Positions 9,942 to 20,108 of a stretch of 64,000 nt of DNA are shown here, one piece after another. Every line of letters starts with the position of its first letter. The first letter of the stretch is position 1. The notes under the pieces were generated by a model, which saw only the letters and a list, made by a program, of their open reading frames with translations, did no database searches and was not told the origin of the DNA. The translations under genes and the position numbers were made by a program. The stretch is from an uncultured Verrucomicrobiae bacterium (GTDB taxonomy: Bacteria > Verrucomicrobiota > Verrucomicrobiia > Chthoniobacterales > Chthoniobacteraceae): assembly GCA_963769025.1 (NCBI GenBank), contig CAVYKI010000002.1, forward strand, positions 160,001 to 224,000, read 5' to 3'.

Positions 9942-14590
<4,649 letters not shown>

Positions 14591-14616
14591 GGCGCAACAC
14601 CAACTTCGAAACGACC

Positions 14617-16101
14617 ATGGGAAAACCAACAGGCTTCATTGATTTCAGCGCGAGCTTCCCGCCGACCGCGCGCCGCTCGAACGCGTCCGCGACTGGAGCG
14701 AATTCCACCTCCACATGCCCGAGGCCACGCTCCGCACGCAGGGCGCGCGCTGCATGGATTGCGGCATTCCCTTTTGCCACACCGGCACGCTCATCAGCGG
14801 CATGGCGAGCGGGTGCCCGATCAACAATCTCATCCCCGAGTGGAACGACCTCGTCTATCGCGGCCTGTGGAAGGAAGCGCTCGAGCGCCTGCACAAGACG
14901 AACAACTTCCCCGAGTTCACCGGCCGCGTCTGCCCCGCGCCGTGCGAAGGCTCGTGCGTGCTCGGCATCAATGAGCCGCCGGTCACGATCAAGAACATCG
15001 AGGTCGCCATCATCGACCAAGGCTGGGAAGAAGGCTGGGTCGTCGCCGAGCCGCCGGCGAAGCGCACGGGCAAAAAAGTCGCCGTCATCGGCTCCGGTCC
15101 CGCGGGACTTTCCGCCGCCGCGCAGCTCAACAAAGCCGGGCACACCGTCACCGTCTTCGAGCGCGCGGATCGCCCCGGCGGGCTGCTCATGTATGGCATC
15201 CCGAACATGAAGCTCGACAAGGAGCAGGTCGTCCTGCGCCGCATCAAGCTGCTCGAAGCGGAAGGCATCACCTTCGTCTGCAACACCGAGGTCGGCAAAA
15301 ATCTCCCCGCGGAGAAACTCATGGCCGACTTCGACGCCGTGGTCCTCGCGACCGGCGCGACGAAGCCGCGCGATCTGCCCATCGACGGCCGCCAGCTCAA
15401 GGGCATCCACTTCGCGATGGACTTCCTCACCGCGAACACGAAGTCGATTTTGGACAGGCACAAGAACGGCAACTTCATCGACGCCGACCGGCAAGGACGT
15501 CATCGTCATCGGCGGCGGCGACACCGGCACCGACTGCGTCGGCACCTCCATGCGCCACGGCTGCGCGAGCCTCGTGCAGGTCGAGATTTTGCCAAAGCCG
15601 CCGATGGAGCGCGCGAAGGACAACCCGTGGCCCGAGTGGCCGAAGGTCTACAAGCTCGACTACGGCCAGGAGGAAGCCGCCGCGAAATTCGGCGACGACC
15701 CGCGCGTCTATCTCACCACCGCGACGAAATTCGAGGGCGACGCCGACGGCCACGTGAAGGCCGTCCACACCGTGCAGGTCGAGTGGACAAAGAACGACAA
15801 GGGCCAGTTCATCCCGAAGAACGTCCCCGGCACCGAGAAAGTCCTGCCCGCGCAGCTCGTGCTGCTCGCGATGGGATTCCTCGGACCCGAGCAGCCGCTC
15901 CTCGAAGCCCTCGGCGTCGAGCGCGACCCGCGCAGCAATGTGAAGGCCGACTACGGCAAATACGGCACCAGCATCCCGAAGGTCTTCGCCGCCGGCGACT
16001 GCCGCCGCGGCCAGAGCCTCGTCGTCTGGGCCTTCAATGAAGGCCGCGGCGCCGCCCGCGAGTGCGACCGCTTCCTCATGGGCGCGACGGATCTGCCGTA
16101 A
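14617..16101 (+). CDS. gltD: Glutamate synthase small subunit (frameshifted)
   Basis: [62 protein letters not shown]. Confidence 0.96.
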
Positions 16102-16205
16102 AGGCGGGGCGGGGGAGGAATCCTGGAGCACGGCGGTGATGATGGAACCCGGCGCTGCCGTCGGGTGGTCGGTCTGCGCCAAGGCAATTAGCTGGCCGGA
16201 AAATA

Positions 16206-16478
16206 ACTGCTCTTGGCAGCCATCAAACGGGAGCCGCAAGCCACAACACGAAAGACGGCAGCCACAAAACAATAGGCGGCAGACCAAGAACAAAAGGCGT
16301 CACCCATGGAACGAAAGGCGCCAGCCCGGGAACGGAAAGCGCCAGCCGCAAAACGAAAGACGCAAGCCTTGGAACGGAAGGCGCAAGCGACAAAACGGAA
16401 GGCGCAAGTCGTAAAACGGAAGGCGCAAGCGGCAAAACGGAAGCCGCCAGCGATTGAACGGAAGTCGCCAGCCCAAAA
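16206..16478. repeat. Tandem array of 13 degenerate 21-bp units
   Basis: Exact 21-bp period, consensus ACRRAAGNCGCMAGCNNNRRA; for example ACGGAAGGCGCAAGCGACAAA, ACGGAAGGCGCAAGTCGTAAA, ACGGAAGGCGCAAGCGGCAAA. Confidence 0.92.
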
Positions 16479-16631
16479 ACCTGCCAAAAAGGGCCTCTTT
16501 TCCGCATTCGCCGCCGCTCCCTCCCGCACGGCAGCCACATACCCCTCATCCAACGACACGGCATGATTATTCTTCTCCACTAACTTTAGTATTGACGGCC
16601 CCCCGAGCAAATTGCCTTTCTCCCCGGCGCG

Positions 16632-17565
16632 ATGAGCAGAGTTATCCGCTGGGGTGATGGCACCCGATTCGGAGATCCCAATGCATATTGGGGCTCTCCC
16701 TCATATGTCCTCCAGCCCGGCGACCCCGGCTTCGTCGCACCGAACCTCACCAGCCTCCTCCTCACCATGAGCGACACCCGCAAGTTCCGTTTCGCCCTCT
16801 CCACACTGCTCCACGCCGCCGACAGCCTCAGCGACGCCATCGGCGACACCGACTACGCCACCGCCATGGTCGCGCGCCTCGACGACCCGGGCGAGACCCC
16901 GCCCTACATCTTCCGCACCGTCTTCGAGACGGCCATCGCCGATGTGCGCGCCGAGGTGCAAAAGCAGGGCGGCAAGACCGGCGATGCCGGCGACCTCACT
17001 TCGGATCAAAAGGCCGCCTTCGCCGAAGTCGAGCGCCTCGCCGCCGCCGCGCGCCGCAGTGCGCGCCTCGCCTTCCCCGGCGACGGCGTGAAGCTGCGCA
17101 GCGAATTCCAGGTCGGCATCGACGAACCGCAGGACCTGGCCTCCGTGCTCGAACGCGCGGGCAAGACCCTCGCCGCCGCGCGCAAATACGCCGCCGAATT
17201 GAAAAAGGAAGGCTGGCGCGCCGCCGACGCCGACGCGCTCGAAGCCGCCCTCGCAGCCCTCGGCGAAGTCGCGCAGGATCAGGACGAAGCCCTCGCCGAC
17301 CGCGCCCAATTCACCGCCGCCCTCACCCGCAAGGCCAACCTCGTCTTCAAGCTCTGCCAGCGAATCCAAAACGCCGCCCGCCTGGAATACCCCTCCACCA
17401 AGCCCAACACCGAAGCCGCCCGCCTCCGCTTCCTCCTCGAAACCTTCCCCCCGCGCGACCGCAACCAGCCCGACGGCGGCACGCAATCAGCCCGACGGCG
17501 GCACGCAGACCGACCCGGTGAATCCTGCGAACCCGCCCACTCCGGCGCCGTCCGACTCCGCCTAA
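16632..17565 (+). CDS. Hypothetical all-alpha protein with a W/G/D/P-rich N-terminal segment and a Pro-rich tail
   Basis: Strong GC3 codon bias to ~17560. A 22-bp duplication (AAYCAGCCCGACGGCGGCACGC) at 17463-17506 shifts the frame; the alternative frame ends NQPDGGTQTDPVNPANPPTPAPSDSA* at 17565. A second possible start is near 16768. Confidence 0.7.
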
Positions 17566-17702
17566 CGGTGCGCGACGAAGAATCTGGCATCTCCGCAAGA
17601 CCTCACAAGCTCCCGCAACCCCTTGCCCCTTATCCGACAGCAATGCAACCAGCCACTGCCCTTACCAGCTCATTTTCCCACACACGATCCACACTGTACG
17701 CT

Positions 17703-18164
17703 ATGAACAAAATCCAAATCACAATTATTGCAGCTCTCATCATCACCTCCGCTGAAAACCACGCTCAATCGGCGAGCGACCGAGCAGCTACAGCGCAAAT
17801 GCACATCAATGCGCTGACCCACGGAATCAATGGAGATAAGATCGTTGCCCAGTCACTTGAAAGGTCGATCCAGCAAACCAACGCGCAGATTCAGCAACTT
17901 CAAAAGCAAAAGGCCGCCCGGCCCAAGACCGTTTCAGACGAAATGATACAAATGCAGGAAGCGGCGCTTGCTAAAGCCACCACACAATTAGACGCTGTGA
18001 ATACCAGAATTTCAGAAAAGGAAAAGTCAAAGCTGCACTACGAACAGGATCTTCGCACAGCGCAGAACACGATGGCACGGGAAAAGAAAAAAGAGCCCGG
18101 CTCAGCCGACGTGCCGCTGGACGAGGCGCTCAAAAGAAAAAAAGGATATCAAAGTGACAAATGA
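17703..18164 (+). CDS. Secreted coiled-coil hypothetical protein (low GC)
   Basis: Signal-peptide-like MNKIQITIIAALIITSAENHAQ, followed by Q/K/E-rich heptads. Confidence 0.6.
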   Translation: MNKIQITIIAALIITSAENHAQSASDRAATAQMHINALTHGINGDKIVAQSLERSIQQTNAQIQQLQKQKAARPKTVSDEMIQMQEAALAKATTQLDAVNTRISEKEKSKLHYEQDLRTAQNTMAREKKKEPGSADVPLDEALKRKKGYQSDK

Positions 18165-18208
18165 GGGTGACACGCACAATCCCATTCAAAACTAGCTTTT
18201 TACAAACG

Positions 18209-18718
18209 ATGAAACTCTTACTTATATTGCTGTGTATTATTTCGGCCACCCCGCTTTCTCTTGACGCGGCGGATCCCTCTAAGGAAGAAACAATCACGTG
18301 GCTGAAACGGAAATTGACAAAACTTCAAACGGTGTATGAGGTAGGCCCGACATTTGTATCAACCACAATTGAAGAGTTCAGCGTTAATAAGGGCGTGATG
18401 ACCCTAGCCATCAAGAAAACCCAAATAGTGGAATCGTCTGAGGTAGTCAGCGAACAGCGGTACAGCGTCGCATTGAGTGAACTATCCACTAAGGTCCGGG
18501 TTGACACTTGGGAGGTAAACTCTACCCCTCGGTGTTATATGATCGGAATGGAGGTCACAAAAGGAGACGGTGTATCATGGCTCGTCGTTCGCACCGGCAA
18601 AACGGCAAAACTCAAGGGAATGAACATTGTAGTTTCAGATGAAGAGTTGGCAAAGAGGGTCGTTAAGGCGCTTTCAAGCCTCATTAGAGCCTTCGGGGGA
18701 GCCGACGAACCGTTTTGA
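18209..18718 (+). CDS. Secreted hypothetical protein (low GC)
   Basis: Signal peptide MKLLLILLCIISATPLSLDAA, then DPSKEETITWLK...; ends ADEPF*. Confidence 0.7.
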   Translation: MKLLLILLCIISATPLSLDAADPSKEETITWLKRKLTKLQTVYEVGPTFVSTTIEEFSVNKGVMTLAIKKTQIVESSEVVSEQRYSVALSELSTKVRVDTWEVNSTPRCYMIGMEVTKGDGVSWLVVRTGKTAKLKGMNIVVSDEELAKRVVKALSSLIRAFGGADEPF

Positions 18719-18894
18719 ACCCCTGCGCCTAACGGAGCGAGGGACGGACTGATTATCCTGGAAGACACTCATGCTATGGCTCATTCGGCGCTGCCAGCGA
18801 CGCGCCTCGCGGCGGGTGCGTGATTCGTGTCGCTTTATACCGAGTTGTTCGGAATATATGGCCCAGGCGATTCACAGGCATGGGGCGCTGTCGG

Positions 18895-18942
18895 AGGAAC
18901 AAGGGACAGACTGATTATAGGAACAAGGGACAGACTGATTAT
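18895..18942. repeat. Perfect 24-bp tandem duplication with a third partial copy
   Basis: AGGAACAAGGGACAGACTGATTAT x2; AGGGACGGACTGATTAT at 18740-18756. Confidence 0.85.
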
Positions 18943-19163
18943 TTGCTGCAACGATTTCCAGATCATGGCGCAGAAGAACAGCCCGAAGCCCTATGAGGCG
19001 TTCGTGGGAGTGCCCTCCTCCGCGCAATGGGAGGAGCCACAGATGGAGTTCCTGCGCAATGCGACGCCGGTGTGGCCGGTGATGCGCGGGTAGCAGAACG
19101 GGAGACGAGCGGTGTCCGACAGTCGCACCGCATCCAGGATGCCCACCAGGAGTTGGGCGCCCT

Positions 19164-19718
19164 CTAGGTGTCTTTCCCTCGGGTGGGACGGGACTGCCCG
19201 TGCCCGTCGCTTTGCGCTACTTTCTCGTATTCTCGAACGCGCCGGAGGACGTCGGGAGGGAGCGGCTCGTGGGTAATCTGGGACTTCGTCAAGGCCAGCA
19301 GGTCGTTGGCGAGGGTGTCGGTGTCTGAGAGGAGGCCCCGCCATTTGGCGCGCTCGGGCATCATCACATGGGGAAGATATTGGCGTGCGAGATCGAGGAG
19401 GGCGAAGCAGAGCTGCATCGTCTTGGGCGTGGCGTCGGGGTCGCGCTTGAAGAGGAGTGGGTTGTCCGAGAAGCTCTCCATAAGGTCGAAAAGATGGTTG
19501 AGCATGTGCCGGGCGATCGAATCTGCCTCCTTCTTGAGGCGGGTCTGTTCGCGGCGCCGGTCGGCGGATTTCATGGTGGCCTTCGCCTTTGCAAAATCCT
19601 CCAGGTCGCATGCGATCATCGCGAGGCCGCGCGTAGGATCGGCCCGCAGCCAACGACTGAATTCCTCGCGTGTGGGATTATCGGGGTCGGCAAAGTTGTC
19701 GCTGGAAAAGGGTTTCAT
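19164..19718 (-). CDS. Hypothetical helical protein
   Basis: 184-aa ORF with protein-like composition; no family recognised. Confidence 0.5.
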   Translation of the reverse strand: MKPFSSDNFADPDNPTREEFSRWLRADPTRGLAMIACDLEDFAKAKATMKSADRRREQTRLKKEADSIARHMLNHLFDLMESFSDNPLLFKRDPDATPKTMQLCFALLDLARQYLPHVMMPERAKWRGLLSDTDTLANDLLALTKSQITHEPLPPDVLRRVREYEKVAQSDGHGQSRPTRGKDT

Positions 19719-20108
19719 GCGGCAGGGAGTGGCAGGTGGGTTCGAGAAGAGAGGTTCTTTTTCCTTGGTTCGAGTCCGAAAGTGCGCGTGACGATGTGAT
19801 CCGATTTTCGGCAGTCAACGGCAAGCCCCTCACTGCGCATGGGAAACCGGGCTTTGCCGGCTGAGAAAGAAGGGAGTGCCCACGCTGGCGAAGGCACATG
19901 CGATCACCCGCAAGGACTGGGTGGACGCCCCTCACGAGCGGAAGGCGGGAAAAAAACGCTGCCGCGCGCCCCGTAGGCTGGAGGCATTGCGATGAGAGGA
20001 TTGCGACAAGCTGGGCGCGTGCGATCTCTGGGGAGGGATGGCTGCCGGCTGTGCCGCGCTTTTCGCTCGTCAATGTGGACTCGTTCCGTGTTGTGATCGT
20101 CCTCACAC

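Follow-up and report, generated by a model that had tools for sequence, protein, structure and literature searches.

A 21-bp-phased, apparently non-coding tandem array in front of a helical-bundle gene family of Verrucomicrobia

What is a row of short direct repeats doing in front of a lone accessory gene? The question is raised by a stretch of 64,000 nucleotides from an uncultured Verrucomicrobiae bacterium (assembly GCA_963769025.1, contig CAVYKI010000002.1, positions 160,001 to 224,000; hereafter the window), in which 13 repeats of 21 bp lie between gltD and the gene for a helical protein, P0001. A preliminary description of this DNA had proposed an uncharacterised module of array and protein. 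The comparisons reported here indicate that these repeats are genuine, do not code for protein, are maintained by selection and belong to the gene that follows them. As judged from sequence, the two make up an array-led cassette, in which a phase-locked 21-bp array is followed, about 150 bp on, by the gene for a PQLLE-like helical bundle. The upstream features are as follows, in coordinates of the window.

16206..16478, + strand: array of 13 x 21 bp, consensus ACGGAAGGCGCCAGCC..AAA, apparently non-coding; units in exact register (identity at lag 21 of 0.70, and of 0.30 after shuffling)
16479..16631, + strand: C-rich spacer, with TTGACG at 16592-16597 and the 18-bp box GCCTTTCTCCCCGGCGCG at 16614-16631, abutting the ATG

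The array and the genes that it precedes

The array is 273 bp long, exactly 13 units of 21 bp in one fixed register with 0 indels, and begins 105 bp after the gltD stop (16101). Identity at lag 21 is 0.698, against 0.24-0.34 at the neighbouring lags (18-20 and 22-24) and a mean of 0.303 in shuffled sequences (n=2000, sd 0.028, maximum 0.393). Tandem Repeats Finder (TRF) returned periods of 21, 42 and 63 over 16274-16480 with 0% indels, and a super-period of 42 bp is present. Columns A1, C2, G10 and A13 are invariant (13/13 units) and A6, C9, G14 and A21 are kept in 12/13, whilst columns 17-18 are the most variable. The unit number, the period and the core AC...A..CG..AG given in the preliminary description were thus reproduced, as was the decay away from the gene, the proximal seven units matching the consensus at 15-18/21 positions and the distal six at 13-17/21. 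The gap to the ATG at 16632, put earlier at about 150 bp, measures 153 bp. An A4 tract stands at one fixed column in 6 of the 13 units (6 of the 7 tracts in the array). In the genome's own 5.34-Mb assembly (83% complete) the array matches only itself, the unit occurring once. A clustered regularly interspaced short palindromic repeat (CRISPR) array, in which repeats are parted by unique spacers, was rejected here as it had been before: the 13 units are contiguous.

Homologues of P0001 were sought in 41 genomes, namely the window's own (G000) and 40 relatives. Full-length homologues were found in G014, G007 and G028 (72%, 46% and 43% identity), all three with an array upstream (3/3); many other proteins match residues 1-40 only. 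Beyond the window's own locus, 17 of the 19 loci identified by P0001 or its N-terminal motif have a 21- or 42-bp array directly upstream, the exceptions being L011 and L015. A class-wide profile search with that motif (the W-motif) recovered it in two further families, with arrays at 14 of the 19 new usable loci; of the five negatives, four belong to array-less subfamilies and the fifth has no more than 226 nt upstream. This count omits L146, L147, L154 and L155 (already counted), L164 (a weak internal match) and L169 (a contig end), and L158, with 4 nt upstream, is not in the denominator. The NCBIfam family NF052641 ('PQLLE family protein') was found in 3 of 201 genomes, and 21-bp arrays lie upstream at five of its six loci, including one in a genome of 43% GC.

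Metagenomes gave the same picture. Relatives of the P0001 family are encoded on 221 metagenome stretches, of which 80 were kept. TRF arrays with a period that is a multiple of 21 were present upstream at 30 of 51 loci (those with at least 500 nt, duplicates removed) and, as a control, downstream at 1 of 55. The minimum period is 21 in 26 of the 30 upstream arrays, 20 in three and 42 in one; an array typically covers 192 bp and stands about 180 bp from the start codon (medians). In 15 of the 21 TRF-negative upstream regions the top autocorrelation lag (8-49) was 21 or 42, a figure that, like the lag scans of the family-array and W-motif loci, had no random-sequence control. Across hundreds of family loci the arrays hold 6-32 units. 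The gene on the far side of the array is gltD in the window and a different open reading frame (ORF) in each of G014, G007 and G028. No conserved neighbour was found in the 80 metagenome loci beyond near-duplicates, save for one small upstream ORF family (5 loci). Because the upstream neighbours differ, array and gene evidently travel together. Orthologues, paralogues and metagenome relatives thus repeatedly have an array in strict 21-bp phase immediately before the family gene, as expected of the recurring module that had been proposed.

The array itself appears to carry no message for the ribosome. Each plus frame meets one stop inside it (TAG 16273, TAA 16412, TGA 16455), as stated previously. 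On the minus strand one frame is open throughout and the other two have a single stop near the distal end, and the listed minus ORFs 16188-16610 and 16223-16564 span most of the array. Conservation by codon position (10.9, 9.3 and 10.0 of 13) has no codon pattern. The array could be imagined to encode a Lys/Arg-rich heptad peptide, since ORF 16306-16566 (86 codons, ATG start) crosses 8 units, would be translated as ERKAQAx heptads, and the variable triplet would then be one codon. We regard this as scarcely credible. Over the full array no plus frame is free of a stop, and the peptide has no protein-family match (Pfam, best E 0.13). Moreover, the heptad is kept in neither of two orthologues: in the same register the G014 array reads x[EKQ]Q[NK][RC]AA and the G007 array reads PQPKNCP-like strings, although the DNA core GCGCA(A)GCC is kept in the orthologous arrays, with a 1-nt shift made up within 21 bp (all read by hand). 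Frame openness is at background level: through the arrays of 17 related loci 73% of sense frames lack a stop, and the gene's own frame, open through the array in 12/17, is therefore not enriched. The sequences point to a non-coding array conserved at the nucleic-acid level, DNA or RNA, as was first suggested.

Constant period and changing units

The arrays of the window, G014, G007 and G028 share one register and an 8-bp core, AAC..GCGCAGCC, with about 4 variable bases, and both register and core are kept across two taxonomic families. Many distant family arrays read TCCC[CG]C-[A/T tract]-CC, and unrelated unit sequences all keep a period of 21 or 42. It appears, then, that each family has its own unit sequence whilst the period is common to all. 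Arrays as degenerate as 50-70% unit identity remain in register even where the proteins of the relatives are only 28-45% identical. The density of A/T tracts is 0.62 per unit in the arrays and 0.30 per 21 nt in gene bodies, and at least 0.6 tracts per unit were counted in 26/44 arrays as compared with 2/44 controls. Single-centre palindromes are a form taken by dimer-binding DNA sites. Sister cassettes, which encode the W-motif, a helical domain and an FN3 domain, have arrays of 42-bp units, and many of these units hold palindromes with one central base (by eye; CAAG-G-CTTG and GGGGGAG-A-CTCCCCC).

Within G000 the period 21 is the commonest reported by TRF, with 81/398 clusters, whereas period 20 has 9 and period 22 has 11, a tally that includes two-copy repeats in genes. 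Arrays of at least 90 bp with a period of 21 or 42 number 23; five are coding or simple repeats, which leaves about 17 intergenic loci. Six of these precede genes with W-motif-like N-termini and two precede unclassified helical proteins, by the gene calls of a crude, purpose-made caller.

One unit family, AACTGGATCGTTC.GTCGCGG, occurs at three loci of G000 (C13:22037-22428, C9:210326-210705 and C10:336897-337400), with at least 18 copies per locus by TRF that are 92-95% identical; one of the three loci lies before a W-motif-like gene. It looks like a young, spreading array family. In the metagenome loci L079 (1606-1720) and L080, a perfect 8-bp microsatellite, (GGCGCAAC)n, is flanked on one side by a strong sigma-70-like promoter and on the other by the 21-bp array. 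These two strains, one pair and other than that of the window, are near-identical; one has about 5 more copies of the 8-bp repeat than the other, whilst their 21-bp arrays differ by only 2 substitutions. Perfect 8-bp repeats also occur upstream of L010 and L015, and strong lag-8 signals were seen in L145 and L150.

How the array may act

We favour, at slightly less than an even chance, a helically phased cis-regulatory row of binding sites. The array would act in cis on expression of the downstream gene, as about 13 equally spaced putative sites. As 21 bp is two turns of B-DNA, all of these would lie on one helix face, with a phased A/T tract on that same face in many units. Such a row might be the seat of proteins that assemble cooperatively, or might keep the DNA bent, at the promoter or in the early transcribed region, and the assembly or the bend would then gate transcription. 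A host factor or an intrinsic shape effect seems likelier than autoregulation, because no nucleic-acid-binding fold is recognisable in the cassette protein and its isoelectric point (pI) is acidic, for which reason self-binding was marked down. The universal period of 21 or 42, the phased A/T tracts, the odd-centred palindromes and the lack of a sense-strand folding bias all speak for an action at the level of DNA.

Several observations weigh against this row of sites. The A/T tracts are missing from a good part of the arrays, and the pI of P0001-family cassette proteins (5.2-6.1) counts against the version in which the cassette protein binds its own array. Of the intergenic arrays in G000, about 11/17 are not before W-motif-type genes (nine have unrelated genes or none behind them: mfd, a prepilin peptidase, an oxidoreductase and others), so the period could reflect a genome-wide mutational or structural bias. 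Other points would place the array within the transcript. Mean GC skew across the family loci is -0.02 far upstream, -0.24 in the array, -0.27 in the gap and -0.17 in the gene. Sites of the form TTGAC[AG]-N16-nAnAAT occur 180-280 nt upstream of the array start in 9/44 loci (that of L079 matches the consensus at 11/12 positions), with two matches between array and ATG and none inside the arrays, although this sigma-70-like consensus is assumed for the phylum and may not be the host's own. The FN3-type arrays of L006, L007, L012 and L020 end 13-20 nt before the ATG, abutting the Shine-Dalgarno sequence, which leaves no room for a promoter between. We judge the evidence for a transcribed array to be as good as that for an untranscribed one.

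Since it is at the array that the C>G skew sets in, with promoter-like sites upstream, the main rival is a repeat-built RNA leader, which we consider possible but tentative. Transcription would take in the array as the 5′ portion of a leader of 300-600 nt, and the array would work as RNA, its low-structure, C/A-rich 21-nt units recruiting an RNA-binding factor or setting mRNA stability; Rho-type attenuation, a chaperone, S1-type translation enhancement and the cassette protein are candidate routes. The strand composition turns C-rich where the array begins and is still so in gap and gene, 36/44 arrays having a GC skew below -0.1 and only 1/44 one above +0.1; a Rho-utilisation-type leader would be a C>G RNA of low structure over at least about 80 nt, to which these 36 family arrays may conform. 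The window's array is A-rich (AT skew 0.70), which would also suit a C/A-rich leader. However, its GC skew is +0.03 and only its spacer is C-rich (-0.15 to -0.32); it folds slightly better than shuffles (-68 vs -52 kcal/mol) and its antisense better still (-80), whilst among 29 arrays the sense strand was the more stable in 16, which is no consistent bias. A search of Rfam over 14000-20000 with an E-value threshold returned only two chance-level rows. Nor is there an RNA cause for exactly 21 or 42 nt across unrelated unit families, and the skew may have been inherited with a mobile cassette. In the window a simple consensus scan of 16000-17000 found no sigma-70-like promoter. Between the window and G014 the spacer is well conserved only at TTGAC (34 and 33 nt before the ATG) and in the pyrimidine-rich 18-bp box before the ATG. 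The DNA and RNA readings are not exclusive, as a DNA-bound row in the early transcribed region would fit both. An unlikely alternative to either is a functionless or selfish minisatellite, in which a lineage-specific mutational process favours duplications of about 21 bp, and concerted evolution and hitch-hiking at the edge of a mobile cassette do the rest. The prevalence of period 21 in the genome, the long 21/42-bp arrays beside unrelated genes, the one unit family at three loci and the fresh 22-bp and 24-bp tandem duplications in the window would all follow from it. Yet drift with indels would erase the register, which degenerate arrays keep at 28-45% protein identity. The core kept among orthologues across two families, the excess of upstream over downstream arrays (30/51 vs 1/55) and the near-identical strain pair, in which the 21-bp array holds whilst the adjoining 8-bp repeat changes copy number, also speak against this process.

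Two of the examples named in the preliminary description fared worse; for its third, a recombination cassette, no sign was found in either direction. In ToxIN-type loci a repeat array lies immediately upstream of a solitary accessory gene, and type III antitoxin repeats (ToxIN, CptIN, TenpIN) are near-identical and about 34-40 nt long (about 36 nt in ToxI). A similar pair, with the repeats processed to small RNAs that neutralise the downstream protein, would account for the layout and for its variable contexts, and is very unlikely. The locus departs from ToxIN in unit length (21 nt), unit identity (13-18/21 to the consensus) and fold, and perhaps in terminator (no plus-strand terminator-like site in 16000-17000, the gap between array and gene included, by a simple consensus scan): P0001 folds as a helical bundle and matched neither ToxN/AbiQ nor anything in Pfam or PADLOC, and the sister cassettes encode FN3 proteins, followed by fibre-like genes. 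Plasmid iterons and parC-type centromeres are direct repeats of about 20-22 bp beside a gene, on one helix face and bound cooperatively, so period and position alike bring them to mind. That the array serves a replicon as iterons, or a partition system as a centromere, is nevertheless very improbable here. The neighbouring proteins that were scanned had no Rep, ParA/ParM or ParB/ParR family match (Pfam, NCBIfam); the array is chromosomal, next to gltD, and the neighbour is an acidic helical bundle or an FN3 protein; and both cassettes and arrays are multi-copy, with about 17 long array loci in one genome and up to 8 W-motif cassette genes in G014.

Other known systems resemble the arrays in part. 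Simple-sequence contingency loci have repeats upstream of adhesin genes, and the arrays likewise stand before genes for surface-type (FN3 or fibre) proteins; this candidate was rejected, the units being degenerate and the 21-bp array stable in L079/L080, one pair and not the window's strain, in which the 8-bp repeat varies. At Bordetella promoters, the sites of phosphorylated BvgA (BvgA~P) are spaced 22 bp apart. Phased binding of this activator at several sites is described for Pptx and Pfha (PMC7250471). Like the arrays, these are evenly spaced sites about two helical turns apart before one gene, and many weak sites would act together; they serve a known response regulator with a handful of sites at few promoters. 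The present arrays have 6-32 putative sites and belong to one gene family at hundreds of loci, with unit sequences that depend on the family. BrickBuilt of Porphyromonas gingivalis is an intergenic tandem array of units of about 20 nt without spacers, for which promoter activity is reported (PMC4596501). According to the same source, it consists of a single family of 23-nt units, which has inverted repeats as leader and tail and is present in 19 dispersed copies. In contrast, the period here is 21 or 42 and the units are locus-specific and tied to a gene family. A MITE (a miniature transposable element with inverted repeats) of the BrickBuilt type, which requires a dispersed identical unit, was rejected, as the window's unit occurs once in its genome.

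A wider proposal, which we put forward as speculation and think rather unlikely to hold in full, is that arrays, W-motif and PQLLE-like or FN3 genes make up an undescribed class of self-sufficient expression cassettes that is widespread in Verrucomicrobia. The conserved signal would be the helical phasing rather than any set sequence, the array would be curved or protein-coated DNA or a repeat-RNA scaffold that switches accessory or surface-fibre genes, and the W-motif would be a matching targeting peptide. In the literature, searched mainly at the level of titles and abstracts, no description of the arrays, the name 'PQLLE' or the cassette was found. New here are the reach of the class into the PQLLE-like helical family, the shared W-motif, the conservation of register and core among orthologues, and the skew and promoter data that favour the RNA leader. 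If the proposal is true, an accessory gene family in a common but little-studied phylum of soil and freshwater carries a portable control element, and what is conserved is a geometry of two or four helical turns, not a sequence, which would make shape-encoded regulation in bacteria testable. It would also explain the dominance of 21/42-bp arrays among the intergenic repeats of these genomes, and would give an annotation rule against calling ORFs through such arrays. With the PQLLE-like bundle and the W-motif, the work further marks out two features of proteins that are uncharacterised.

The downstream protein and its relatives

The gene behind the array, all on the + strand, is made up as follows.

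16632..16745, + strand: W-motif coding region; motif common to otherwise different cassette proteins, with synonymous differences against G014
16767..17459, + strand: helical-bundle body, PQLLE-like, from the second methionine, M46 (A1 alignment, AF2 model, NF052641, hhalign)
17460..17507, + strand: 22-bp tandem duplication, 2.2 copies with one mismatch (TRF); shifts the C-terminal frame
17508..17565, + strand: C-terminal tail and TAA (17563-17565), the stop expected with a single 22-bp copy according to the orthologue alignment

P0001 (16632-17459) begins with a rare 38-residue Trp/Gly/Pro motif, the W-motif, followed by a linker and a helical body that starts at M46, the position at which the G007 and G028 orthologues begin. 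The gene had been taken as one open frame over 16632-17565. However, the duplication at 17460-17507 breaks that frame, and the assembled ORF runs on through a low-GC stretch to 18164. The G014 orthologue ends ..FPPRDRSQPEGGTQTDPATPPPQ, and the window fits that ending only with one 22-bp copy ignored; the duplication may be a real disruption or an assembly error.

The protein had also been called an orphan, which no longer holds given its many metagenome relatives and a probable distant kinship with NF052641. The profile of that family scores P0001 at 19.6 bits (E 5.9e-4) and its orthologues at 15.6 and 16.4 bits, short of the curated cut-off of 80 bits. L019 scores 79.8 bits for NF052641 and also matches P0001 (E 8.6e-6), and hhalign aligns the P0001-family alignment A1 with the PQLLE alignment A4 over 198 columns (probability 74%, E 2.8e-5). 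On these scores we file the window protein as a probable distant relative of NF052641 and not as a member. Both have a basic N-terminal stretch, then a helical domain of about 200 residues, and 21-bp arrays upstream; the window protein differs in having no C-terminal PQLLE-type ending (it ends ..FPPRD..) and in carrying the W-motif. Against Pfam, PHROGs, NCBIfam and PADLOC, P0001 gave nothing above cut-off, and a PDB sequence profile search with A1 had a best E of 0.073. A scan of genome contigs with a single protein found only that protein's own record, in an uncultured Opitutae metagenome-assembled genome, and in the ESM Atlas the matches were to unnamed clusters only, from Verrucomicrobiota and Bacteroidota.

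The AlphaFold2 (AF2) model of P0001 is all-alpha, as had been foreseen (mean predicted local distance difference test score, pLDDT, 73; residues 1-34 disordered, pLDDT <50). A structure comparison, which the preliminary description had suggested, yielded only a generic four-helix-bundle likeness. Foldseek found nothing better than E 0.17 in the PDB and E 0.25 in BFVD. The best match of a wide fold search (Z 7.3, root-mean-square deviation (rmsd) 4.0, 101 residues), to an Avd-type four-helix bundle of diversity-generating retroelements (DGR), lies within the generic range for helical bundles.

The W-motif has the consensus M[RK]xxxWGDGTRWxDPNxRWGxPSYVLEPGDPGYV, and the synonymous differences between the window and G014 across it reflect conservation of the protein. 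It occurs in 155 representative clusters in 1.84 billion proteins and, among the 150 listed, mostly from residue 1. Several W-motif proteins in the representative library start 27-140 residues late, which is likely to be caused by gene calls running through the open array. The motif is all that the window protein has in common with the FN3 type (hhalign probability 99.3%, 41 columns); no FN3 domain was found in the window protein by Pfam or in its AF2 model, whereas in the FN3-type model that domain is confirmed by the fold search (Z 15.2, rmsd 1.5 over 90 residues) and fills the match lists. There the W-motif has a pLDDT of about 80, as against <50 for residues 1-34 of P0001. An array-less W-motif subfamily, in which a linker is followed by ..MSTFQF.I.PNP.. 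or a similar stretch, comprises L160, L161, L168, L167, a G000 locus at C9:~572619(-) and L011. Since this subfamily has no detectable upstream array, W-motif and array are separable.

Behind three array-led cassettes in G000 (L022, L023 and L024) comes a gene for a collagen-like protein of about 200 residues, each with weak PHROG tail-fibre matches.

C13:19592-20233, - strand: collagen-like gene
C6:655920-656519, + strand: collagen-like gene
C9:1248449-1249054, + strand: collagen-like gene

These share the N-terminus MPFDPS.P...AEMRAQL.GLK, and no further phage genes were noticed in the flanking ORFs that were inspected. On viral contigs (L039-L058) only a short stretch of the W-motif, [VI]L[QE]PGD[PE]GY[VI]AP, was found. 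On phage contigs of low GC it makes up the very C-terminal end of proteins about 107 residues long, and it also occurs inside phrog_8424 proteins. No array with a period that is a multiple of 21 bp was found near it on those contigs, and the stretch may be a shared docking peptide or a coincidence. Two further proteins, P0021 (2673 aa) and P0113 (424 aa), have 12 and 6 internal matches, respectively, to the first half of the W-motif profile, which is an internal repeat. In the window, a low-GC patch at 17550-18900 (GC 0.44-0.55, against about 0.65 around it) follows the cassette gene; its two small ORFs (that ending at 18164 and 18161-18718) had no match in the families scanned. At 18895-18942 there is also a perfect tandem duplication of 24 bp.

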